Shown in pieces: positions 10,102-46,230 of a stretch of 64,000 nucleotides of DNA. Positions within the stretch are counted from its first letter, which is position 1. Each line of letters begins with the position of its first letter. A program made the position numbers and the translations under genes. The notes under the pieces are model-generated. The model did no database searches, was not told where the DNA came from, and saw nothing but the letters and a program-made list of their open reading frames with translations. The DNA comes from a virus (Duplodnaviria > Caudoviricetes): IMG/VR virus record IMGVR_UViG_3300021255_002539, positions 350,061 through 414,060 of that record, one strand, 5' to 3'.

Positions 10102-11526
10102 TTAACCATCAGAGGATTTCCTTTTCTTTTTCTTTTCATATTCCTCCTCCTTTCGGGACTCGTATGTCTTCTCCTTCAGGACATTTACGCAATAGTCGTT
10201 CATCGTCAATATGGCAGAGACCTTCTTGGAGAGACTTTGGACCTCATCTTCACTCTTCGCAAACGCCCGAATGTCAGGAATCGCATCTTCCGGCCACTTG
10301 CCCTCTGTCCAAGGATAGTCGGGGTCGTCTTCGTCCTTGGTTTGCTCCTTCGTGGGCTTCGGCAACTTCTTGAACAGGGCGTTGCGCTTCTTCAAGTCAA
10401 CCTGAAGGTAAATAGCCAACTTGACCCAATCGTGGTCAGTGCTCTTTGCTGGCCTCTCAGACATAATCCTGTCCAAGAGCCACTTGTACCACTTCGTGTT
10501 CCATTTCCACATGTCATATTGGGAACCATATGGGATGAATGGATATGTCTTCCTCAATTCGTCTATTGTCATGACAACTTCCTTCCAATCTTTTTGGTTT
10601 TCTTGAGAATATCCTCGGTCTTAGTGACAGTGGAAAACACATTGAGCAGAAGCATAGTCGCGCCAAGAACACAATATAGAGCAACACCGCCGTGTACACT
10701 TCCATTGGCATCCCCTTCGATGAAGCAGAAGATGCCAAATGCCATAATGTACACAAACTTGAGGAATCCCTTCATCATCAATCTTCTGACAACGCGAATT
10801 GAGCAAAGCATTGCAGTATATTTCCACACTTCCAACTATCCCAATCCAACAAGTCGGTTATCTCGCCCCTTCTCCGAATACATCCCATTGGACATCTTTG
10901 TTCGCAATAGTTGCAATGTTCCACAAACGCCTTGACCAATTCCTGTGAGGCGTTGACAACATCGCATTTCCGTTTTGGTTTACTTGCCATGGTTCTCATT
11001 CTTCCTTATCGTGGTCAATCACCCGCCTGGTGTGTTTTCCAAGTATTCTCTGATAGTCTGCAATCTCCTTGTCCAAATGCCTGCTATATCTCCCGTACAA
11101 ATCATAATACATGTTCTTCCAAGACTCCTTCTCGCGCCACAATTTGCAGACAACCCCAATAATCTTCTGCATGTCGTTGTCAATTGGCTTGTTGTCCCTC
11201 TCCATCTTGTCCACAATTCCCAGAAGAAATCGCTCCAACTTGTCATGGTCGATCTGCTTGGATTCTGGATTCAGCGTGTTCGCAATCAAACTCTCCAGAA
11301 TGTTGTCGTCGTCTTCAAGCATTGTTGTCCTTCCTCCTCTCGTGTTCAATCTTGCATTTCCAATACTCCGTAGCAGAATCCAGAAGCTCCCCACGTCACC
11401 TCTGGCACAAATCCACCAATGCACCAATAGTATTTCCATCGGACACATCAAGCTTTCCAGCAACCTCTGCCATTACATGAATGGCTTCCTCGGCTTTCTT
11501 GATTAGGACTTCATCTTTGTTCTTCA
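10102..11526 (-). CDS. Run of small hypothetical ORFs (10102-10572, 10569-~10778, 10778-10990, 10996-~11322 and others)
   Basis: Coupled ORFs with RBS behind a promoter at about 11550-11578. Confidence 0.5.
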
Positions 11527-11621
11527 TATCATGATTTTCCTCTAAGAAATTATACCACTTTTGGCTGAATTGGTAAAGTTTCAATCAGAATTCAGAATGG
11601 ACTACTGTAGAAGACGACAAC

Positions 11622-11650
11622 AAAAAAGACGACATCCGAAGATGCCGTCT
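11622..11650 (-). terminator. Intrinsic terminator of the tRNA/ncRNA operon
   Basis: AGACGGCATC-TTCG-GATGTCGTCT followed by a U-run. Confidence 0.85.
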
Positions 11651-11903
11651 ATCAAAAAGATTCGAGGGTTTTCTCGCCCAAGGCAAGTCCCATATCGCAT
11701 ATCAATGGGAAGCCCTTTCAGGCGAAGGACACTATGCTGTGCGTGTATCGTCCATGCCAACCCTATACCCAACATAGACACGACCCACCGCCTGCCAATC
11801 CATTACAAAAGATGTTCCGGAAACACCCATTGGTGGATATGGCTGCGCATTGGGAAGATGTTTAGGACAGATTTAACAAGCCAATCGGGATATAGAAGGA
11901 AAC

Positions 11904-11992
11904 TGGAGCCACAGGTCCGATTTGAACGGACGCGACCATAAAGGTGCGGGTTTACAAAACCCGTGCAATCGACCTGGCTATGCGACTGTGGC
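11904..11992 (-). tRNA. tRNA-Thr(UGU) with a long variable arm
   Basis: CGGGT-TTTGTAA-ACCCG anticodon arm; CCA end. Confidence 0.8.
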
Positions 11993-12000
11993 CTCGAAAC

Positions 12001-12075
12001 TGGTGGACCGCCGGGGAGTTCAACCCCGCTATCTGCCGTGCAAAGGCAGTGTAATAAGCGATATACGAGCAGCCC
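12001..12075 (-). tRNA. tRNA-Ala(UGC)
   Basis: CTGCC-TTTGCAC-GGCAG; G3-U70; CCA. Confidence 0.9.
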
Positions 12076-12108
12076 ATTGTAAATCTTGTTATGTTCAATT
12101 ATACGAAA

Positions 12109-12864
12109 TCATTTAAGTAGAAGTGAATCATTCAGAACTATCTTGCCATCTACAAAGTCCTTATACTGTTTCTCACCAATAAAGTAGATTCTTATTCCTG
12201 GATTGTTTTCCAAGACAAGACGCATCTTTTCCTTGTCTTTGTCTGAATAATAACCCTTTACTTCAACATACTCGTTTGTATCTGGTAAGTAGAAATCTGG
12301 ATTATAGGTTTTGCGTATACCATCTTTAATGTATTTCAATGTTTTGTTCCTAATCCAATTTATACCATTTGCTGTCAATTTGTTGGCAACATTCTCCTCC
12401 CAATGACCCCTTACAGTATATTCAACACCATCTAAATTCTTCACTTTGTACCAACCAACATCTTTGAATCCCACTTTACACGAATCAAGATATTTAGAAC
12501 GAATTTCAGAAAGTTTCTCCCGCGTTTCTTTGGTATGATGGAAAGTTCTTCCTTTCTGCGAGATTTTGTTTTTCTCTGCTATTTGTCTTACTTTTGTTGA
12601 TGTTTCACTGGTCAATCCCTTGTTCCATGCCATTCCCTTCTTGAATCCATGTTTCTCTTTTCTGTGGATTTGCATTTCGTTTCTTGTATGAAAAAGACCT
12701 CCACAAATTGTACACTTCCAAGTGTGTTGTTGCCTATTCACATTAAAATTGCACACATGGTGCTTTACTTGCTTCGCAATATACGAACATCTACAATGCT
12801 TGGAGCAGAACCTTCCGCTTCCATACGAGCCATCATGCTCGTTTCCACATACTTCACATATCAT
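12109..12864 (-). mobile_element. Free-standing homing-endonuclease-like gene (Zn fingers, NUMOD3-like motif, PD-(D/E)XK nuclease) inside the tRNA cluster
   Basis: CEVC..CSKHC, CTIC..H, WNKGLT, HTKETREKLS, YNPDFYL..VEVKG; low GC; TATAAATA upstream at 12913-12920. Confidence 0.75.
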
Positions 12865-12985
12865 AATCTTTTTACCTTTAGTTTAATGTCGTTGTTCTAG
12901 CAACGACATATCTATTTATAATTATACGAAAAGTTGCCTCCCAACTTGTGTTGGCTAGAACCATGACGGTTGGGAAGCGCAATGT

Positions 12986-13061
12986 TGGTAGGAGGGGTGG
13001 TAGTTGCAACCACGACCCATTGCTTATAAGACAATCGCTCTTACTGCTGAGCTACCCTCCC
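12986..13061 (-). tRNA. tRNA-Ile(UAU)
   Basis: ATTGT-CTTATAA-GCAAT; CCA. Confidence 0.88.
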
Positions 13062-13176
13062 GTTGAAATGAAAAAGTTGAAGCCCAGGAAATGGGTCAAA
13101 GACACCGGTTTTCTTCCGGAGTGAAATTCCCATCTTCGCCGTTTGGACATTTCTGCTTTACACCTCCTGGACTTCT

Positions 13177-13337
13177 GGGAGTTGCATCCAGTGCGTTCAA
13201 TCACTCCGCCACTATGCTGCGGGCTGCAACAAGGAGGGATTCAAACCCCCGGTCGAGTATCCTATATAGGAGCATGGGTGGCAGAAAGCAACCGGTGCGC
13301 GATTGCCACCACTCGACTCTGAATGCTGTTATCTCCC
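13177..13337 (-). ncRNA. YrlA-like circularly permuted tRNA mimic (candidate Y RNA)
   Basis: Order is long arm, T-arm (GGGGG TTTGAAT CCCTC), closed acceptor-like hairpin, D-arm; ends pair GGGAG/CTCCC and GCATTCAG/CTGGATGC. Confidence 0.72.
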
Positions 13338-13354
13338 ATTTAACTTGAAAAACT

Positions 13355-13429
13355 TGGAGCGAACGATGGGTGCTGCCCCCACTTGATCCAACCTGGCAGA
13401 TTGGTGTACTGCTGATGTACCACGTTCGC
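13355..13429 (-). tRNA. tRNA-Gly(GCC)
   Basis: CCAAT-CTGCCAG-GTTGG; UCCA. Confidence 0.88.
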
Positions 13430-13580
13430 ATTGAAATGGTGTGAGATTCGAGGACTCTTACCCCCATTACCATCAACTTGGAATGCGGACTTGACGTCCT
13501 AATCCACATTCTGCTTGATGACCAAGCGGACTCACCGGCCGAATGGCATTCTACCAAGGAGCGACCTTGGCATTGAAACT

Positions 13581-13663
13581 TGGAGCCCCGATACAAGTAC
13601 GACTTGATCCAATCCTCCATTACTGGGTGGGATTGACATTCCCCGTTATGGAATTACCGAAGC
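13581..13663 (-). ncRNA. CCA-ended tRNA-like RNA with an elongated anticodon arm
   Basis: GCTTCGGT/ATCGGGGC-TCCA stem; CAATCC...GGATTG long arm. Confidence 0.55.
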
Positions 13664-13687
13664 ATGTTGAAATCGTCTATATGAAAT

Positions 13688-13761
13688 TGGTTGTCCCGCC
13701 TGGGTTCGGACCAGGTCTAAGGGTATCAAAAACCCCTGTGCAGCCGATACACCACGGGACA
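13688..13761 (-). tRNA. tRNA-Gln(UUG)
   Basis: GGGGT-TTTTGAT-ACCCT; U1-A72; CCA. Confidence 0.9.
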
Positions 13762-13770
13762 TTTTGAAAT

Positions 13771-14027
13771 TGGCGGTGGCGTTGGGTTCGCACCAACAGT
13801 CTCGTGGGGCTTTGGGGAATTTTTAGTACGCACGAATGCAAGGCGAGAGCCTATAGTCAACTGAGGCAGAACTTGACATTCCAACCCCAATCCAAACTCG
13901 CCAACCCCAGGGTCACCTGGCTCCCTGCATGGAAGTTGTCAAGACCTCCACGCAACTTCTGTGACACTACTTGCTCCTCGTTCCCTTGGAACATGCCCTT
14001 TGTTCTTTTGTGTTTGAACTATCCACC
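13771..14027 (-). ncRNA. 257-nt tRNA-like RNA with a ~180-nt structured domain in place of the anticodon loop
   Basis: GGTGG/CCACC-GCCA acceptor, GTTC..GAAC D-arm, GGGC/GCCC stem, GTTGG-TGCGAAC-CCAAC T-arm. Confidence 0.6.
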
Positions 14028-14034
14028 ATTGAAA

Positions 14035-14340
14035 GGGTCTGCAGACTGTCTTTACATTGGAATCTCTGCAGGGAAACCAACAACCAGACCTGACTAGCAG
14101 GGTTTCGTTTCTCGTCTGGTATGCCATCTAGCATAGCGATACACGCAGTGGGCTACGCTGCTCCCTGGGTCTGCTTTCCTCCCAGCTCAGCCCAACACGT
14201 TCTTGGGACTTGCATATGGCGTCTGTGATATCCCACAATTGACTTCAATCAGCACATCGGGATTCGGACCACGGTTTCACTCTTCGTGTATTCTACCTTT
14301 TTGAACTATTTGTGCCTAATCTTCATGTGACAGACGCACA
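14035..14340 (-). ncRNA. Structured ncRNA containing an embedded tRNA-like core
   Basis: GCGTCTGT/ACAGACGC stem enclosing D-arm, short arm and T-arm; bounded by TTTCAA spacers. Confidence 0.5.
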
Positions 14341-14346
14341 TTGAAA

Positions 14347-14625
14347 TGCTTGAAGCGGAGATTGCTTATGTTTGACCGGTGCACCGGCAAGTTCATCGTG
14401 TTTACGGACCAGGAAAGAACCAGCTGACCCCTGAATCCTATTTGTTAAGTGTCATGACACTTAACAACCCACTGGACGCTTGTTATGTCCTCTCCGCAGA
14501 ATCTATCCAGGGGAAATCCACTTGTGGCATGCGATATATTTGGCGCAGGTGCCGTCGGCGCATATACTTTGTTTGCCGCACATATTCCCATATGAACCAA
14601 TTGATCCACATGTGCCATAAGGGGA
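14347..14625 (-). ncRNA. Putative structured ncRNA with a 26-bp perfect palindrome
   Basis: ttgttaagtgtcatgacacttaacaa at about 14442-14467; non-coding unit between spacers. Confidence 0.4.
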
Positions 14626-14628
14626 AAG

Positions 14629-14718
14629 TGGTGTGGAACGCCGGATTCGGACCGGCAATGTCCCGTTGGGGACGCAGGATTAGGAATCCTGTCGAGTGTC
14701 CAATTGTCGCAGTCCCAC
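14629..14718 (-). tRNA. tRNA-Arg(CCU) with a long variable arm
   Basis: CAGGA-TTCCTAA-TCCTG; V-arm GTCCC-CAAC-GGGAC; CCA. Confidence 0.82.
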
Positions 14719-14728
14719 ATGTTGAAAT

Positions 14729-14846
14729 TGGTGGCTGTCTTGCGGGTATCAACCCCGCTGTCTCCCCAACGGGCGATGCATCAACCCATCTTGTCAGGGA
14801 ACCCGTTTTACGCACAGGCCAGGACCAAATACCTGAGTATCAAGCC
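14729..14846 (-). ncRNA. CCA-ended 118-nt tRNA-like RNA
   Basis: GGCT/AGCC-ACCA terminus; T-like arm GCGGG-GTTGATA-CCCGC; no normal anticodon arm. Confidence 0.5.
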
Positions 14847-14855
14847 ATTGAAATC

Positions 14856-14930
14856 TGGCGGGGTAACGGGTAGTCGAAACCCGATAGTCTGCTCGACAGG
14901 CAGATGAACTAGCCGTTGTTCTATTACCCC
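14856..14930 (-). tRNA. tRNA-Asp(GUC)
   Basis: TCTGC-CTGTCGA-GCAGA; GCCA. Confidence 0.9.
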
Positions 14931-14934
14931 GAAA

Positions 14935-15074
14935 TGGTGTGGTCTACCGAGATTGATTTCTCAATCTCGGCTTCATGCTTCATCGTCCCAACCGTGCTTG
15001 GTTTTCGCTAATCTATTATTGGTCGGAACTCCACATGCATGTCGTTCGCAACGCGAACGATCCCTGCGACCCAC
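14935..15074 (-). ncRNA. CCA-ended 140-nt multi-hairpin RNA
   Basis: GTGGGTC/GACCAC-ACCA; hairpins TCGTTCGC/GCGAACGA and CCGAGATTGA/TCAATCTCGG. Confidence 0.55.
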
Positions 15075-15097
15075 AGGTACTGAAACCAAATCGTCCA

Positions 15098-15182
15098 ATT
15101 GTCAAAGAACAACCTTTGTCTAATGCGCAAGCATTATTCAAAGAGCATATCCAATTATACAACACATCCAGTCAAATGTAAA
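15098..15182 (-). promoter_or_regulatory. Internal sigma70-type promoter with boxA-like antitermination sites
   Basis: TTTACA-N17-TATAAT followed by GCTCTTTGAAT and GTTCTTTGACAA. Confidence 0.75.
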
Positions 15183-15231
15183 GTGGTTTCCGATGTTGGA
15201 TTTGAACCAACGACTCCAATCGGAATCAAAC

Positions 15232-15307
15232 TGGTAGATGTGGAGAGAATCGAACTCCCGACGCATACCATGTGAAGGTATCGCTCTAGCCACTGAGCTA
15301 CACATCC
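15232..15307 (-). tRNA. tRNA-Val(CAC)
   Basis: ATACC-TTCACAT-GGTAT; CCA. Confidence 0.92.
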
Positions 15308-15316
15308 ATTTGAAAC

Positions 15317-15395
15317 TGGGTCGCCGTGCAGAATTCGAATCTGCGATTTCCTCGTTCACAGCGAGGCGTCTTAACCAGGCTCGACTAACGGCAAC
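15317..15395 (-). tRNA. tRNA-His(GUG)
   Basis: CCTCG-CTGTGAA-CGAGG; G-1:C73. Confidence 0.92.
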
Positions 15396-15402
15396 ATCTA
15401 AA

Positions 15403-15495
15403 TGGCGGATGAGGCGCGTCCCGGCCGCGCATGCCCGATTTCTCGGAGCCATTCGCTTTCCAAGCGAAGCTGTTTGCCAATTCCAGCACTCATCC
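15403..15495 (-). tRNA. tRNA-Ser(GGA)
   Basis: TTCGC-TTGGAAA-GCGAA; long V-arm; GCCA. Confidence 0.88.
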
Positions 15496-15501
15496 ATAAA
15501 C

Positions 15502-15595
15502 TGCGGAGCAAGCAGGCTCTGCCCCTGCGGGGGACATTTCTGCCCCACGACGGATTAGCAATCCGCGCCCTTATGACTGACTTGGGTATTGCTCC
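15502..15595 (-). tRNA. tRNA-Ser(GCU)
   Basis: GCGGA-TTGCTAA-TCCGT; long V-arm; no encoded CCA. Confidence 0.85.
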
Positions 15596-15606
15596 ATGTT
15601 GAAATC

Positions 15607-15690
15607 CGGATGCGGAGCGACTCGAACGCCCAATCCCGTGAAGGACACCTGAGTTCAAATCAGGCCGACTACCAATTATCACACGCATCC
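15607..15690 (-). tRNA. tRNA-Ser(UGA)
   Basis: CCTGA-TTTGAAC-TCAGG; long V-arm; no encoded CCA. Confidence 0.85.
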
Positions 15691-15705
15691 ATAAATTGAA
15701 ATCTG

Positions 15706-15791
15706 CAGATGGAGCTGGAATTGCACCAACATGTGACTTTCGCCACCCCGACTTTCGAGGTCGGACCTTTACTGTTTAGGAGAATCCATCC
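15706..15791 (-). tRNA. tRNA-Ser(CGA)
   Basis: CCGAC-CTCGAAA-GTCGG; long V-arm. Confidence 0.82.
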
Positions 15792-15837
15792 ATCTTGTGA
15801 AATTGAAAAGGATATGGCGTTCCTGTTTCGCAAGATT

Positions 15838-16432
15838 ATGAACCTTGGACGACATGGACTCAAAGAACTACTCCTGGTGGCTGGCAACATCTTCCGGAAG
15901 TTTTATGTGCTTGGCTGTTTCAGCACCTCCAGTTGGCAGATATTTCGTTCTTAAGGCAAGCCATCTTGCCTTGGTATTTTTCTTTCCTCACGAAAGAAAA
16001 ACAACCAACAAAAAGAAATCATCTATTAAATCAAAAGAACCATCCGATTGGGAGTTGCTTCACCTTGCGGTTCATCAACCATCGCAGGACTTCCCACGAC
16101 TTTTCAATATATCCCATTTATCTGCATCCAAATGCCAGCAATTGCCATCTTGTTGAGAGTTATCACCTTCGTATGTTCTAGTTTATCAGAACACACCTCT
16201 CGGTGGTTGCCGTGGTGAACATTGCATTTGGGTAGCCTTTCTTTCGGGTATGCACTCAATGGAAGGACTTGAACACTTCATGGTAATGGGCTTTTGCTCA
16301 TCTACATTAAGATGAACATCGCCAGCCAACCTACCATCATGGCGAATGACCGAACGAGTTGCCACTACTCTCGTCACTGAGCTGCCGTTGAAGCATTAAG
16401 CATACTGGGTTTAACTCCCCATCTGGTTCATT
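15838..16432 (-). ncRNA. Large (~595 nt) structured ncRNA, in the ROOL/GOLLD size class or novel
   Basis: 5' ATGAACC pairs with 3' GGTTCAT; GGTTGGCTGGCGATGT pairs with ATGTTGCCAGCCACC; many hairpins; no credible ORF. Confidence 0.65.
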
Positions 16433-16436
16433 TAAA

Positions 16437-16514
16437 TGGCACCTCTGGTCGGACTTGCACCGGCAAATATCCTGGATGAAAACCAGGTGACTCTACTAAT
16501 TTGTCTACAGAGGC
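16437..16514 (-). tRNA. tRNA-Glu(UUC)
   Basis: CCTGG-TTTTCAT-CCAGG; GCCA. Confidence 0.9.
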
Positions 16515-16521
16515 ATTGAAA

Positions 16522-16597
16522 TGGCAGTCTTAATGTGATTTGAACACATGTTTCGGGAGTGAGGTTCCCGCGTCCTAACCAACTAGACGATAAGACC
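16522..16597 (-). tRNA. tRNA-Glu(CUC), C33 variant
   Basis: CGGGA-ACCTCAC-TCCCG; GCCA. Confidence 0.85.
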
Positions 16598-16604
16598 ATT
16601 CATT

Positions 16605-16701
16605 TGGCAATATTCAACCAATGTTCCAAGGGGGAATCGGACCCGTTGTTGCCTATCGTCATACTTCTCACCAGAGTAGGAACATCGGTCATGGAATTGC
16701 C
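16605..16701 (-). ncRNA. tRNA-elbow mimic on a long extended stem
   Basis: GGCAAT/ATTGCC and ACCGATGTTCC/GGAACATTGGT stems enclosing D-like and T-like (GGG TCCGATT CCC) arms. Confidence 0.5.
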
Positions 16702-16721
16702 CAACCATCTTGCAAGTCATT

Positions 16722-16798
16722 TGGAGAGCAAGGTGGGAATCGAACCCACATTTGCGGATTTGCAGTCCGCCGCCAAGACCACTATTGGCAACTCGCCC
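16722..16798 (-). tRNA. tRNA-Cys(GCA)
   Basis: GCGGA-CTGCAAA-TCCGC; UCCA. Confidence 0.92.
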
Positions 16799-16879
16799 AT
16801 AAAAATGTGGAAGGTGGGTCTGGTTACCCACAACTTGTTCCTGGACAGGATTGTTTTTGCTGAAGACTACTTCCACAAA

Positions 16880-16953
16880 TGGCAAGGGCGATGCGAATCG
16901 AACACATGTCTTCAGTTTTGGAGACTGAGATACTACCACTGTATGACGCCCTT
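16880..16953 (-). tRNA. tRNA-Trp(CCA)
   Basis: TCAGT-CTCCAAA-ACTGA; GCCA. Confidence 0.92.
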
Positions 16954-16961
16954 ATTGAAAC

Positions 16962-17041
16962 TGGTAGGACTGGCGAGACTCGAACTCGCAAATCTCTTCG
17001 TTCGTAGCGAAGTGCAGTAGATCCGATTTTGCTACAGTCCC
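16962..17041 (-). tRNA. tRNA-Arg(ACG)
   Basis: CTTCG-CTACGAA-CGAAG; CCA. Confidence 0.92.
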
Positions 17042-17049
17042 ATTGAAAT

Positions 17050-17123
17050 TGGTTGGGGATGATGGTATTGCGCCACCTCTAAGAGGTTCAGAGCCTCCTG
17101 TACCACTTTTATACGAATCCCCA
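17050..17123 (-). tRNA. tRNA-Gln(CUG)
   Basis: GGAGG-CTCTGAA-CCTCT; U1-A72; CCA. Confidence 0.88.
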
Positions 17124-17133
17124 ATTGAAATCC

Positions 17134-17319
17134 TCAAACTTCCTCGCAGAAGTGCTTGCTTATCCTGAAACCCACTCCCTTGAGTTGATACACAGGCTTG
17201 CCATCGTTTCCAGTGCATTCGCCAATCACCTTGAAAGTCTCCCCTTGGTGTTCCCTAATCCACCTCTTGAAGTCCTCTGATTGCCAGGACGCGCTTGATT
17301 CAACTACCTTTACGAACAT
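17134..17319 (-). CDS. Small hypothetical protein within the tRNA operon
   Basis: Strong AAGGAGG RBS; 61 aa. Confidence 0.65.
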   Translation of the reverse strand: MFVKVVESSASWQSEDFKRWIREHQGETFKVIGECTGNDGKPVYQLKGVGFRISKHFCEEV

Positions 17320-17348
17320 GTCTTTCCTCCTTGTTCTTCTTGATGAAA

Positions 17349-17501
17349 TGGTGGCAACATCCGATTCTCACGGAACCTGCGACCACCAATGTCGCTGCGC
17401 TCATATGACCACCCTATCTAGAGTCAGATGGTCAAGTCCCTGTTTCTGGTGGAAGGCGAATTCAATTCCCTTCATACCCTTTGGGATTATACTATATTGC
17501 C
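17349..17501 (-). ncRNA. Oversized (153 nt) tRNA-like RNA with CT-CTA-GA near the tip of its anticodon-position arm
   Basis: GGCAATA/TGTTGCC-ACCA acceptor, expanded D region, TGACCAT/GTGGTCA arm, GCGAC/GTCGC V-arm, TCCG-TGAGAAT-CGGA T-arm. Confidence 0.6.
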
Positions 17502-17545
17502 TAAATTGGTGGACTAGTGCCGCACAAGGCGACATTGACCATAAA

Positions 17546-17620
17546 TGGTGGACCGGCGGGGTAACGCTCCCCGACTCTTTCGTTGCGAACGAAAAGTGCT
17601 GCTTCTATCACTATCGGCCC
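17546..17620 (-). tRNA. tRNA-Ala(CGC)
   Basis: TTTCG-TTCGCAA-CGAAA; G3-U70; CCA. Confidence 0.88.
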
Positions 17621-17632
17621 ATTGAAAGGGAA

Positions 17633-17780
17633 TGTTCAAGTTATCGGGCCCAGCCCTCTGGCTTCTGCAAGGTTGGAACTTGCGAGAACTTTGCTGCGTG
17701 GGGAAACCCCCTTGGCAACCGTAGCCAGTTTGTCATTTGTTAACTATGGTGGAAAGTTCCGACTTGAATGAACTTGAACA
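17633..17780 (-). ncRNA. ~150-nt structured RNA
   Basis: TGTTCAAGTT/AACTTGAACA closing stem with internal hairpins. Confidence 0.45.
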
Positions 17781-17794
17781 AAAGCGCACACCTA

Positions 17795-17864
17795 CCACAT
17801 GGCTGGACTCGAACCAACACCTCCGCCCTATGACGGGCGGTGTGCCACCATTACACTACACATG
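17795..17864 (-). ncRNA. tRNA-like RNA with a non-canonical anticodon loop and no CCA
   Basis: Normal D and T arms (GTTGG TTCGAGT CCAGC); CCGCCC-GTCATA-GGGCGG arm. Confidence 0.55.
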
Positions 17865-17976
17865 ATTTCGACCACTGCAAGATGGTCTTGCCCGGTGTCT
17901 GGCAAAATGTTCTCAATTATACGAAATAATCACCCTCAAATCTGTTGGCTGCAACCATGAGTTTGGGGGTTGAAAT

Positions 17977-18309
17977 TGGTGGAGCGGAGGGGAATCGAAC
18001 CCCTGTCCGAAACAGTCCTGTTGGACGCTTTCTACAACAGTTTCCTATGTCATTTAACCTCTCATCATAATAGGAATCAGATGACAGGCGAGAATCCCCA
18101 TTGTAATGTTCCATCGGGTGGGGAAACCAGACCCAATGGACATGCCAGACAATGAATTCCCTACTCAAGCCCCATCTGGCGTCAGGCTTTTTTGGTAGGC
18201 TTAAGCAGCCATTCTGTAATCGTTGCCGTTTACTTGTTTTGGAATTTACGCCTCCCGGCATGGTGCTGCGTCTTTGGGATATTGCTCCGTCGAATACCTG
18301 AACCGCCCC
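17977..18309 (-). ncRNA. ssrA: tmRNA, tag (A)GNDYRMAA*
   Basis: 5' GGGGCGGTTCAGGTATTCGAC; 3' GGGGTTCGATTCCCCTCCGCTCCACCA; GTAAAC-GGC resume codon; tag ends GCT GCT TAA. Confidence 0.95.
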
Positions 18310-18319
18310 ATTGTCAAAT

Positions 18320-18395
18320 TGGTGGGAGGATGTGGGATCGAACCACAACCTTCGGATTTTCAGTCCGTAGTACACACCAAGTATACGATCCTCCC
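18320..18395 (-). tRNA. tRNA-Phe(GAA)
   Basis: CGGA-CTGAAAA-TCCG; CCA. Confidence 0.92.
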
Positions 18396-18402
18396 GATGA
18401 AA

Positions 18403-42640: not shown

Positions 42641-44299
42641 TCAGATGGACATGTTCTCAATGTCCTCCACCATGGACTTCAGCTTGCCAGCCTTGTACAT
42701 GGAGATTATGTCAAAGATGTTGTTCGACCAGCCCGAGACATTGAGCAGCTTGAGGTTGGGGTTGAACACGGAGGTGCCACTCTGGCCCCTGATGTTGCAG
42801 CACACCGTAAGGCAATTGGGGTTGATCTTCCTGAATTCCTTGAACAAGTCCTGGAACTTGACTCTGGATGTGCTGGTGCAGTCCCAACCACCCTCGCCAC
42901 CATCGCCAATCTCCATGTCAGAGAACACGATGAAGTTGTCGATGTGCTTCTTCTCCTTGATGACATTCTTGAGGAACTCGTATAGTCCATTCTCGGTCGC
43001 TCCACCACACTTGTCGCCCTCGTCGTAAGTGTGCTTGTTGAACTCAAGCAGACCAATGCCCCTGTCCATTGCAGGAGAGATTAGCCTGTCTCCGAACATG
43101 CCAATGTAGACATCCTTCTGCTTGAACGCCACGATGGAGCCGAAGAGATTGCCAATGTGCGCCGTATTGACGCTGCTCCAAGGCGAGACGCCCGAAGATG
43201 CCCAAGAATCCCCCCTCACAGAGCCAGAGTGGTCGATGAGGACAGCGCAGTTGCCCTCCAGGTCAGGGACATTCTCGCAGGCGATGTTCATCGCCTGTTC
43301 AAGTGCCTTTGACACCTTGGACTTCAGCTCAGAGAGCTTGCTTGCGGTCATGTTGGAGGATTTCGCTTCGTCTGACTCGAACTTAATCTTCGTGTCGGTT
43401 TCGTCCCCATTAATGTAGTCAGACATCTCCAACTTGTTCACAGCATCGTATGCAGACATGAACCTGAATGGCAGGAGCCTGCTGTTCACAACCTTGTCGT
43501 GGTTCGTGAGCTGCTTGGTTGCCTCGTCAATCAAGTCAGGAGCATAGAGCATGATGTTCCTGAGGTTGCGGAGCAGGTTCATTATTGGCATTCCCTTCTC
43601 AAGCACAGCCTTGATTGCGTCGTGCTTCGCCAGAACCAGCTCCTGCTCGTTGCTTGCGTTCTGGCCCGTAGCTGCCATCTCCTTCTCCAGAATCTTGGAG
43701 TCGTATGTCCCATCAAGGGACTCCCCATGCATCAGGCGGCGATATGCCTCCCTGTTCTTGTCAGTTGGGGTTGGATGGAGCAGATTCACGATGTCCACCA
43801 AGGACAGGTACTTGCCCTTCATCTTGTACTTGTCAATCTGATATGGCGAGAGATTGGAAAGCACAGTGCCAAAGCCCCTCTTCATGGCGTTGGGTACCTT
43901 GCGAATCTTGCCATCGGTGGCATTCATCTTGGCATAGCAAGACAGAATCTCGGAAATGTCGTCTGGCCGAAGGACAATATGCTCGTAGAAGGACTTGAGC
44001 CAGGTTGGGTGCGTGGAGTCCTTACAGACCAATGCAGCAAGAAGATGGCTCACCGAGCGGAGGTTTCCCTTCGTCCTGGCATAGAGGGCCAACTTCGCAG
44101 TGAACTCGTAGCCACACTTTTGGGCAAGCTCAACGATGTTCTGCGTCAACTGATTCTCGGTGACATAGTATGCGTCAGTGAGGAAAGTGGTCATGACCAT
44201 GGAAGTCAAGGCTTCCTTGTCAGACAGAACATATGCGTCCTCGCCCATGAAGTTCTGCTCCATTTGTGCGCCAGCCTTCTTCTCGTTGAACTTGCTCAT
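42641..44299 (-). CDS. rsr: Ro60/TROVE-domain RNA-binding protein with a vWA domain
   Basis: KLALYARTKGNLRSVSH, RPDD, YQIDKY, DIVNLLHP, LLRNLRN, SRLLPFRFMSAY and DHSGS MIDAS-like motifs. Confidence 0.93.
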   Translation of the reverse strand: MSKFNEKKAGAQMEQNFMGEDAYVLSDKEALTSMVMTTFLTDAYYVTENQLTQNIVELAQKCGYEFTAKLALYARTKGNLRSVSHLLAALVCKDSTHPTWLKSFYEHIVLRPDDISEILSCYAKMNATDGKIRKVPNAMKRGFGTVLSNLSPYQIDKYKMKGKYLSLVDIVNLLHPTPTDKNREAYRRLMHGESLDGTYDSKILEKEMAATGQNASNEQELVLAKHDAIKAVLEKGMPIMNLLRNLRNIMLYAPDLIDEATKQLTNHDKVVNSRLLPFRFMSAYDAVNKLEMSDYINGDETDTKIKFESDEAKSSNMTASKLSELKSKVSKALEQAMNIACENVPDLEGNCAVLIDHSGSVRGDSWASSGVSPWSSVNTAHIGNLFGSIVAFKQKDVYIGMFGDRLISPAMDRGIGLLEFNKHTYDEGDKCGGATENGLYEFLKNVIKEKKHIDNFIVFSDMEIGDGGEGGWDCTSTSRVKFQDLFKEFRKINPNCLTVCCNIRGQSGTSVFNPNLKLLNVSGWSNNIFDIISMYKAGKLKSMVEDIENMSI

Positions 44300-44328
44300 C
44301 TACTGTGCCTTTCCTTTCTATACATCAA

Positions 44329-44420
44329 GAATGTTGCGAGGGAAAGTCTGTGAAAGTCTGTTTAGTGCGAATTTCCTATTTGCGTTAGAAGTAACTTCCA
44401 CATCACCACTCGCAACATCC
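44329..44420 (-). ncRNA. Y-RNA-like RNA in the Ro60 leader
   Basis: GATGTTGCGAG-TGGTGA-TGTGGAAG-TTACTTC-loop-CTTTCACA-GACTTTCC-CTCGCAACATT; starts right after TTTACA-N17-TATAAT (44451-44423). Confidence 0.78.
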
Positions 44421-44462
44421 TAATTATACATCAAACCCCAAATGTTGTAAAGGGGTTTCTGC

Positions 44463-46169
44463 TTACATTTGCGTCTGTACTGGCATTGGCTTCACTGGGG
44501 TGTTGACGACGCCAGAGAGGGAGAGCAACTGGCCCGCTGCAGACGCACCATTTTTCATCGTCTCAATCACGGCGGCAGCCGAATCAACGATGCCCTTCTC
44601 CATCAAGTCAATCATCTCGCCAGTGCCCAGATCCACGCACCTGGTCCAAGCAGAAATCGGAATCTTGTATGCCTCCGTTTCCTTGTGGGTAAGATGTTCC
44701 TCCCTGTTGGCTGCCTGAACCACACCAAGCGCGTAGTGGGCGTTCTGCTTGCCAGAATTGCCACACACCGTGAGGAATGGCTTGCTCAAGGCGTCTGCGA
44801 ACACTCGGAATCCTGAAGCCTCCTCGGATGTCAGCTCTGCAATGTGCTCTGCAAGCCACGCATACAGTTCGTCCTGAATCGTGAGGTATGTCAAGCCACA
44901 TCCAGGGACGATTCCATGCTTCTGGGAACTTGATACGCTTGCAAAAGCGTCATCCACCAAGTCCTTCTTCTCGTGCATCTCAGCCTCGGTCGCTCCACCA
45001 ACAGATATGATGCCGATTCCAGACACCATGCGGGCCTTCCTCGTCTTGTTGATGTTGCGATCATAGTCAGTGGCCTTCTCGTCGGCAAGCTCAGACTCAA
45101 TCTCGGCAACCCTCTTGTCGAACCTGTCCTTGACTATAACAGATGGGTCGGCTATGATGGAGGTGGATTCCGAGGTCACAATCACCTGCTTTGCAGAACC
45201 AAGGATTGTCATGTCTGAACAGACACTCTCAAGCGTCAACCCGGTCTCAGGTGAGATTACCTTGCCACCCGTTACTACTGCCAAGTCCTCCATCATCTTC
45301 GTGCGCCACTCGCCATAGTTCGGTCCAAGGATTGCGCAAATTGGCAGACCGCGAATCTTGTTCACGATGAAGGTGTTGAGGATGTCTGGGTCGTAGTTCT
45401 CTGCCACCACCAATATCGGGCGGTTCAACTTGCTCAATGCCTCGAATGGCTTGAGAAGCTCGCCAAGCACCGACAGCCTCTTGTTGACAAGCAAGATGAT
45501 TGGATTGTCAAGCACAGCCTCCCCATGCTCGTTGGTTGCGAAGTAGGGGGACTCGAAGCCACGGTCGATGGTCATGCCATACACAATCTTGGAAGTCGTC
45601 TTGTCTGTGTTGGAAAGCTCGACTCGCGCCATTCCATCCTTGCCAATCTTGGAGAACACATCGGTGAGGATCTTCGCAATCTCGTCGGAGCCATTGGCAG
45701 AGACCTTCGCCACATTGTAGATGTCCTGGTCAGTCTTGACTGGGGTGGACAAGTTCTCAGCAACCAGCTTTTGCGCGAGTTCGCTGGCCTTGTTGATGCC
45801 CTTCCTGAGCAAGTTGCCATTTACCCCGGCTGTGAGGAATGTATGCCCCTGTTGGAAGATCTCGTTCGCCAAGATGCAGGTGGCGGTCGTTCCATCGCCA
45901 GCCTTCCTGTTCGTCTCGTCTGATGCTGACCTAATCACGCTCAACGCGATGAAGTCTGACTCGGTCTCTGGCTCTGTCATCGAGCGCAAGACGGAGATTC
46001 CGTCCTTCGTCACCCTGGCAGTCTTGCCATTGAGCAGGAACACATTGTGCCCATATGGACCAGCGGTCTGAGCCACTATGTCCGAAATCTTCTGCGCCGA
46101 CTTCTTGACGCCAAGCAACACTTCCTCGGTATTGCCATGAATCTGTGTAGAATAGTTGTTGTTATCCAT
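44463..46169 (-). CDS. groEL: Chaperonin GroEL-like protein
   Basis: TAGPYG, VTKDG, AGDGTTAT, DRGFESPYF and VGGATEAEMHEKKD motifs. Confidence 0.95.
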   Translation of the reverse strand: MDNNNYSTQIHGNTEEVLLGVKKSAQKISDIVAQTAGPYGHNVFLLNGKTARVTKDGISVLRSMTEPETESDFIALSVIRSASDETNRKAGDGTTATCILANEIFQQGHTFLTAGVNGNLLRKGINKASELAQKLVAENLSTPVKTDQDIYNVAKVSANGSDEIAKILTDVFSKIGKDGMARVELSNTDKTTSKIVYGMTIDRGFESPYFATNEHGEAVLDNPIILLVNKRLSVLGELLKPFEALSKLNRPILVVAENYDPDILNTFIVNKIRGLPICAILGPNYGEWRTKMMEDLAVVTGGKVISPETGLTLESVCSDMTILGSAKQVIVTSESTSIIADPSVIVKDRFDKRVAEIESELADEKATDYDRNINKTRKARMVSGIGIISVGGATEAEMHEKKDLVDDAFASVSSSQKHGIVPGCGLTYLTIQDELYAWLAEHIAELTSEEASGFRVFADALSKPFLTVCGNSGKQNAHYALGVVQAANREEHLTHKETEAYKIPISAWTRCVDLGTGEMIDLMEKGIVDSAAAVIETMKNGASAAGQLLSLSGVVNTPVKPMPVQTQM

Positions 46170-46230
46170 TGTTGTCGTAAACCTTTCCATGTGTTGTAAT
46201 TATACGAAAACCACATTTGCTCCACAAATG

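Follow-up and report, generated by a model that had tools for sequence, protein, structure and literature searches.

A conserved 153-nt RNA with a tRNA-like frame in the tRNA operon of a TAG-recoding megaphage

A 153-nt unit in the tRNA operon of an uncultured megaphage is probably a stable, tRNA-framed non-coding RNA, which would be excised like a tRNA and would offer an invariant loop to a binding partner, and is probably not a decoder of TAG codons. A preliminary description of the locus had proposed an oversized tRNA-like RNA acting as an unconventional amber decoder. The tRNA-like RNA and its conserved CTA stood up to analysis; the decoding role became unlikely, given the separate tRNA(CUA) genes in the phage itself (genome G000) and in two complete relatives (G001 and G002). 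The 153-nt RNA is a new family within a known kind, the tRNA-framed RNAs of phage tRNA operons, and TAG reading is probably the job of the separate, stand-alone tRNA(CUA), which has an ordinary shape.

Setting, architecture and conservation of the 153-nt RNA

The window analyzed here, a 64-kb stretch, forms the end of a phage record of 414,060 bp that carries direct terminal repeats. Within it, a 9-kb minus-strand array of tRNA genes and a tmRNA gene houses the 153-nt RNA. The operon around the unit comprises ~35 tRNAs and one tmRNA (17977-18309, the sole tmRNA call by ARAGORN), the latter lying 480 nt upstream of the 153-nt RNA, and contains many irregular units. Immediately upstream on the same strand are tRNA-Ala(CGC) and a short CCACCA-ended hairpin. 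Downstream comes a 61-aa ORF and then, two units away as first described, tRNA-Gln(CUG) at 17050-17123. The spacers flanking the unit, AATTTA upstream and TTTCATC (TTTCA-type) downstream, are the usual punctuation of the operon.

The features originally described at 17349-17501 on the minus strand, namely a 7-bp acceptor with ACCA, a T-arm, a variable arm, an expanded D region and an elongated arm with a CT-CTA-GA tip, were all found in the sequence. The parts of the RNA are listed below; G006 is a third relative.

17349-17501, minus strand: whole tRNA-framed RNA, 153 nt, defined by sequence and context, with homologs in G001, G002 and G006
17495-17501, minus strand: 5' strand of the acceptor-like stem, GGCAAUA, pairing with 17353-17359
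17437-17486, minus strand: H1, a branched 50-nt hairpin with an outer stem (UCCC/GGGA), middle and inner stems and a GAAUUGAAUUC tip, also predicted by RNAalifold
17406-17434, minus strand: H2, a 9-bp stem under an apical loop, 100% paired in four sequences
17415-17425, minus strand: apical loop of H2, 11 nt, GACUCUAGAUA, invariant, with CUA at 17421-17419 and the palindrome UCUAGA
17397-17405, minus strand: conserved joining strand UAUGAGC(GC), with a possible pairing to 17488-17491 as a 4-bp D-stem-like helix
17378-17396, minus strand: H3, a 5-6-bp hairpin with a loop of 7, 5 or 6 nt and variable sequence
17360-17374, minus strand: T-arm-like hairpin UCCG-UGAGAAU-CGGA with a 4-bp stem, read from the sequence; the loop is UGGAAAU in G001
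17349-17359, minus strand: 3' strand of the acceptor-like stem, UGUUGCC, and the ACCA tail, read from the sequence

The T-arm-like hairpin lies directly 5' of the acceptor 3' strand. It contains the equivalents of G53-C61, U54 and A58, with G55 and A56 replacing Psi55 and C56. Six of the seven pairs of the acceptor-like stem are invariant and the seventh is A-U, G-U or A.C, and the 3' tail reads ACCA in the window phage, GCCA in G002 and G006, and GACA in G001. H1 occupies the place where a D-arm would be, and its tip contains GAAUUC. The initial caveat that the central loop is not a clean 7-mer was correct: the H2 loop has 11 nt, and becomes a 7-nt CUCUAGA if an A-U pair (A78-U86) above a G.A layer closes. 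The D-stem-like helix (alignment columns 11-14 with 97-100) was 100% paired, with one A-U to G-U change, and was not predicted by RNAalifold from the four sequences. Two junction topologies are thus possible, one with H2 as the central arm and the other with H1 and H2 branching from a D-like stem.

A search with the phage chaperonin yielded the two complete relatives, G001 (434 kb) and G002 (418 kb), and a motif scan yielded the third, a 202-kb fragment covering half a genome (G006). Each of the three carries one homolog of the 153-nt RNA, at 69-72% identity to the window sequence, and model R1 scored all four sequences at E values of 1e-45 to 1e-49. The RNA is single-copy in each of the three complete genomes (G000, G001 and G002), with no paralog. 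In the relatives, the homolog is located at or shortly after the pair formed by tRNA-Ala(CGC) and the minihelix-like hairpin, with other units intervening between the pair and the RNA in G001 and G002.

The proposed structure is well supported by this alignment, in which 96.5% of the cells are paired across the four sequences. Seven compensatory pairs were counted (four in H2, two in H3 and one in H1, at columns 26/52), versus 0-1 in slid controls; the four sequences are effectively two lineages, and all of the compensatory changes fall on one branch. H2 also shows two one-sided changes. RNAalifold independently recovered the same helices, and no helix was lost across ~30% divergence. Moreover, alignment columns 76-90, which comprise the H2 loop and its closing G-U pairs (15 nt), are identical in 4/4 sequences, so the tip of H2 is constant while the stem below it differs at four to six pairs. 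At ~28% divergence, we estimate that such 15-column identity would arise by chance about once in 100 cases. The homologs, the seven compensatory pairs and the invariant 11-nt loop together indicate that the 153-nt RNA is a genuine structured RNA.

These data also bear on whether the unit is a decayed pseudo-tRNA or a mere spacer without a function of its own. Its single-sequence fold is unremarkable, no better than those of shuffled sequences (z = -1.54), and it resides in an operon rich in irregular units, as would be expected of such a remnant. However, the compensatory pairs, the retention of every helix over ~30% divergence, the 15-column invariant tip and the presence of one copy in each of G000, G001 and G002 make this explanation scarcely credible, and we disfavor it.

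The RNA appears to have a narrow distribution. It matched no family in Rfam and nothing among the INPHARED phages, and no homolog was found in prokaryote genomes, where all 13 matches to a 17-mer were unrelated. Exact-word scans of viral contigs, with either the T-arm 18-mer or the odd T-loop of the neighboring tRNAs, returned unrelated contigs only. Loop-independent scans of viral and metagenome contigs, using the T-arm plus acceptor or the joining strand plus T-arm, revealed no further variants, and the neighboring 997-aa protein as a query led to no related loci. As a separate observation, the identical 18-mer, GGTTCCGTGAGAATCGGA, occurs in an unrelated 13.5-kb phage tRNA array (L003:9202-9219, minus strand; also L002), where, within a non-tRNA unit of another kind, it folds into a hairpin whose loop is likewise UGAGAAU; nothing else is shared. 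This 18-mer may be a shared T-loop-type module.

The architecture suggests how the RNA would be produced. The acceptor-like stem stacked on the T-arm would form a tRNA-like top half, and RNase P recognizes the acceptor/T-arm stack. The tRNA-processing enzymes of the host (RNase P for the 5' end, 3' trimming and CCA repair) would then release the unit from the long transcript of the operon, using the TTTCA-type punctuation that it shares with the neighboring tRNAs, and the same enzymes would give it a protected end. We thus infer from the tRNA top half and the tRNA-type spacers that the 153-nt RNA is cut out and stabilized like a tRNA. The invariant 11-nt loop on the covarying H2 would be the working part, most likely a binding site for a protein or an RNA, with H1 and H3 having structural roles. 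The loop keeps TCTAGA although CTAG is depleted about eightfold in the genome, which counts in favor of this reading. Several points weigh against this explanation: the compensatory changes come from one branch of what are effectively two lineages, the H2 loop has no antisense target in the G000 genome, and no Y RNA or tmRNA model matches the unit. In addition, an invariant loop on a covarying stem also resembles an anticodon arm.

TAG recoding and the stand-alone tRNA(CUA)

The premise that the phage needs to decode TAG was upheld. Reading through TAG raised the greedy coding density of G000 from 0.896 to 0.937, and yielded ORFs of 3888, 3450 and 2416 aa with 20, 7 and 14 TAGs, respectively. 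Such read-through ORFs are spread over the whole genome. ARAGORN likewise agreed that the window is devoid of a tRNA(CUA), and neither ARAGORN nor Rfam called one anywhere in the G000 genome. Nevertheless, the possibility raised at the outset, that a normal suppressor lies outside the window, proved to be right: a 79-nt tRNA(CUA) is encoded ~52 kb ahead of the window, at G000:297902-297980 on the minus strand (L001:203-281, minus strand).

The minimum-energy fold of this tRNA(CUA) is a complete cloverleaf. The acceptor has 7 bp and starts from U1-A72, the D-stem has 4 bp and includes G10, the anticodon stem has 5 bp under a CUCUAAC loop, the variable loop has 4 nt and the T-stem 5 bp, and G73 and CCA are present. 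The T-loop is 8 nt long (GUGGCAAA), and in the D-loop GG is replaced by UGCC, the complement of GGCA in the T-loop. ARAGORN and Rfam miss the gene because of these two deviations. The tRNA(CUA) gene stands alone: it has its own promoter-like motif (GTATAATTGA) and its own terminator, a hairpin with a T-run, and its TTTCAAT spacer is that of the operon.

A tRNA(CUA) is encoded in both complete relatives as well. In G002 (L088:1424-1500, minus strand), the gene is syntenic and is preceded by a homologous promoter and leader, and the tRNA is of class I with a canonical T-loop, G73 and a CCC tail. In G001 (L093:1369-1458, minus strand), the gene lies behind the same GTATAATTGA promoter motif and encodes a 90-nt class II tRNA with a long variable arm, a canonical T-loop and A73. 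The suppressors of the three phages are thus unlike one another: class I with an odd elbow in G000, class I and canonical in G002, and class II in G001. These differences suggest either that the suppressor gene was replaced or that G001 inserts another amino acid at TAG.

With respect to charging, the G000 genome encodes neither a Glu/Gln-tRNA synthetase domain nor a release factor. Since no such synthetase is encoded, the TAG decoder must rely on a host enzyme for charging. In the G000 tRNA(CUA), U1-A72, G2-C71, G10, G73 and U35 fit the known identity elements of glutaminyl-tRNA synthetase. Ortholog alignments offered too few sites to assign the amino acid inserted at TAG.

We also considered a bootstrapping idea, in which a suppressor behind a late promoter would make an earlier decoder necessary. 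The GTATAATTGA motif has 29 copies in the genome, and 20 of the 28 downstream ORFs are TAG-free. The bootstrapping idea was rejected because the motif mostly precedes TAG-free genes, so that the suppressor can be made before the TAG-rich genes.

Taken together, the tRNA(CUA) genes in G000 and both complete relatives remove the reason for an exotic decoder. The recoded megaphage has no need of one, as its suppressor is a tRNA(CUA) of ordinary shape, overlooked by both ARAGORN and Rfam. This result is in line with the view of Borges et al. that suppressors escaping detection are in many cases just non-canonical (10.1101/2021.08.26.457843).

Possible roles of the invariant loop

In the amber-decoder explanation, the 153-nt RNA would be aminoacylated at its NCCA end, and H2 would be an extended anticodon arm showing CUA to UAG. 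The loop places U-CUA-G-A in the register of a 7-nt loop if A78-U86 closes, and this sequence is invariant in the four sequences. The H2 stem covaries as anticodon stems do, and the 7-bp acceptor is followed by a single-stranded ACCA or GCCA in three of the four sequences (the tail is GACA in G001). Moreover, H2 consists of 11 layers (9 bp, the G.A layer and the A-U pair), about the combined length of a D-stem and an anticodon stem, so a tRNA-size L-shape would be geometrically possible; this point also counts against our preferred reading of a tRNA-framed RNA with a binding loop. Borges et al. detected suppressors in only 40% of the TAG-recoded phages and allowed for novel RNA molecules (10.1101/2021.08.26.457843).

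The conservation of the CUA, proposed earlier as a check on decoding, was confirmed in 4/4 sequences, but as part of the 15 invariant columns. Since the whole 15-nt tip is invariant, the conservation of the CUA is not specific to decoding. An alternative AUCU/AGAU fold that had been thought to bury the CUA was not conserved: it is 75% paired, with one pair broken in 3/4 sequences. A U-CUA in register would arise by chance in about 1/256 hairpins with a 7-nt loop, and the operon holds dozens of hairpins.

The body of the RNA departs from a tRNA in many respects. Instead of the 5-bp anticodon stem and 7-nt loop of a tRNA, H2 has 9 bp and an 11-nt loop, with 9-11 stacked pairs under the loop in place of five. 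A D-loop with GG is absent and two extra arms are present, the T-stem has 4 bp, and the T-loop is UGAGAAU, with positions 55/56 other than Psi-C. tRNAs reading UNN codons normally carry A37, but here G37 follows A36. The G001 tail lacks CCA, and charging would depend on a host synthetase tolerating a 153-nt RNA with G1-C72, A73 or G73 and no D-arm. ARAGORN made no call on the unit at the default, 90%, 85% or 80% thresholds, with or without introns, and Rfam RF00005 gave no match to it at E up to 10 over 11000-22000. The Rfam models for tRNA-Sec (RF01852), tmRNA (RF00023) and YrlA (RF02553) also failed to match at the 153-nt RNA at E up to 10. H3 was considered as the real anticodon arm (UGG) and rejected, since its loop varies in length (7, 5 or 6 nt) and sequence.

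Furthermore, the 153-nt RNA is not the only CUA-bearing adaptor of its genome, as separate cloverleaf tRNA(CUA) genes were found in the three complete genomes examined for them, G000, G001 and G002. The RNA shares with the Sup-CUA tRNAs of TAG-recoded code-15 phages a U-CUA hairpin loop, a 7-bp acceptor, a mostly NCCA end and residence in a TAG-recoding phage (10.1101/2021.08.26.457843). Unlike them, it has 153 nt versus ~76, 9-11 stacked pairs versus 5, G37, two extra hairpins, no D-loop and a 4-bp T-stem with G55/A56, and the true Sup-CUA genes are elsewhere. Overall, it is unlikely that the 153-nt RNA is a TAG decoder, and the specific proposal of an aminoacylated RNA with H2 as its anticodon arm is very unlikely.

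The loop might instead serve TAG reassignment as an accessory. It could mimic the suppressor anticodon loop, or its UAG-A could pair with the CUA anticodon, and the RNA would thereby titrate or protect the suppressor or a factor such as a synthetase, a modification enzyme or a nuclease. CUAG holds both the amber anticodon and the amber codon, and the first five loop bases (CUCUA) are those of all three suppressors (CUCUAAC and CUCUAAA). The RNA is also confined to one clade, in which G001 and G002 carry a tRNA(CUA) and TAG recoding was measured in G000 only. However, five shared bases are a resemblance alone, and the great divergence of the suppressors, while the 153-nt RNA stays the same, argues against co-evolving contacts beyond the anticodon. 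We regard such an accessory role as improbable. For the broader claim that the CUCUAGA loop takes some direct part in TAG reassignment, either as a second, elongated UAG adaptor or as an anticodon-loop or codon mimic controlling the suppressor, the likelihood is low.

Another property of the loop is its 6-nt palindrome, invariant within the 11 nt. In a self-associating scaffold, the UCUAGA core, possibly together with GAAUUC at the H1 tip, would engage in kissing contacts to form dimers or multimers. The predicted 6-bp duplex has an energy of -5.2 to -6.8 kcal/mol. In addition, CTAG is depleted about eightfold throughout the G000 genome (201 observed vs ~1617 expected) and TCTAGA occurs 16 times vs ~101 expected, and the H2 loop retains TCTAGA in spite of this avoidance. 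On the other hand, the predicted interaction is weak, any loop that holds CUAG is automatically palindromic, and nothing in the data requires dimers. A scaffold of this type is therefore quite unlikely in our estimation.

As a side observation on these motifs, the 9.5-kb RNA array contains 16 of the CTAG sites of the genome and three of its TCTAGA sites.

Finally, we considered whether the RNA is a Y-RNA-like ligand, with a tRNA-like module, of the phage Ro60 (TROVE) protein. The gene for this protein, which has a TROVE domain, is 25 kb away, at 42641-44434 on the minus strand, and bacterial Y RNAs (YrlA) carry tRNA-like domains. The 153-nt RNA indeed resembles YrlA (RF02553) in being a tRNA-like non-coding RNA of a genome that encodes Ro60. 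However, the YrlA model of Rfam has no match here and the topology is reversed, as the free ends form the acceptor in the 153-nt RNA and the Ro-binding stem in YrlA. The sequence of the H2 stem also varies, so it would not provide a sequence-specific Ro site. This explanation is highly improbable.

The TROVE gene adjoins that of a Cpn60-type chaperonin (44463-46190, minus strand). All three TAGs of the TROVE ORF are within its first 45 codons, so its true start may be further downstream.

Related RNAs and other units of the operon

The nearest analogues of the 153-nt RNA are the T4 species I and II RNAs and tmRNA, although by the tests applied it belongs to neither. T4 species I and II are two stable RNAs made from the precursor transcript of a tRNA cluster, and their function is not known (PMC2330249). 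Likened by description only, they share with the 153-nt RNA the nature of a non-tRNA unit co-transcribed with phage tRNAs and, as we propose for the 153-nt RNA, freed from the common precursor. The 153-nt RNA itself lies inside the tRNA transcription unit, with the strand and punctuation of its neighbors. Unlike them, the 153-nt RNA is found in an uncultured 414-kb phage, in an operon of ~35 tRNAs and a tmRNA.

The resemblance to tmRNA (RF00023) lies in the acceptor and T-arm that frame a larger RNA, with an inner part replacing the anticodon arm. tmRNA is processed like a tRNA, and we propose the same for the 153-nt RNA. However, the features that identify a tmRNA are missing from it: the third acceptor pair is C3-G70 instead of G3-U70, there is no tag reading frame and there are no pseudoknots, and RF00023 does not match. 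As in class II tRNAs and tRNA-Sec, an additional hairpin (H3) separates the central arm from the T-arm. Unlike them, the 153-nt RNA has an expanded D-region and central arm as well, and neither RF01852 nor RF00005 matches.

The 153-nt RNA thus adds a conserved member to a little-known class, the folded RNAs that use a tRNA frame for excision from phage tRNA operons, whose function is a question dating back to T4 species I and II. Its small size, its four natural variants and its sharply defined invariant loop make it convenient for pull-down and mutational work.

Several neighbors of the 153-nt RNA are also unusual. The short CCACCA-ended hairpin directly after tRNA-Ala(CGC) (17502-17545, minus strand) is kept in G001, G002 and G006 with a varying stem (GUCGC/GCGGC vs AUCGCA/UGCGAU), and may be a minihelix-like unit. 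On the other side, the 61-aa ORF (17137-17319, minus strand) has an AAGGAGG ribosome-binding site and lies inside the RNA operon right after the 153-nt RNA; it is missing at that place in the relatives, and its one match is a weak one to a PHROG.

Elsewhere in the array, a tRNA at 17793-17866 (minus strand; 43 bits with Rfam) has the anticodon arm CCGCCC-GUCAUA-GGGCGG, which presents CAU in a 6-nt loop, or in an 8-nt loop with the last pair open. ARAGORN gave the same odd call in G002 (L089 10472-10551). By eye, further tRNA-shaped units are visible in the gaps between the called tRNAs (18396-18585 and 19224-19586, both minus strand), such as a Thr(CGU)-like unit with a ~100-nt insert and a Lys(CUU)-like tRNA with an odd T-loop. 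A promoter-like TTTCGTATAATTGA is present within the array at 17913-17921 (minus strand), 420 nt upstream of the 153-nt RNA; its motif is the one with 29 copies in the genome, mostly before TAG-free ORFs, that also precedes the suppressor gene.
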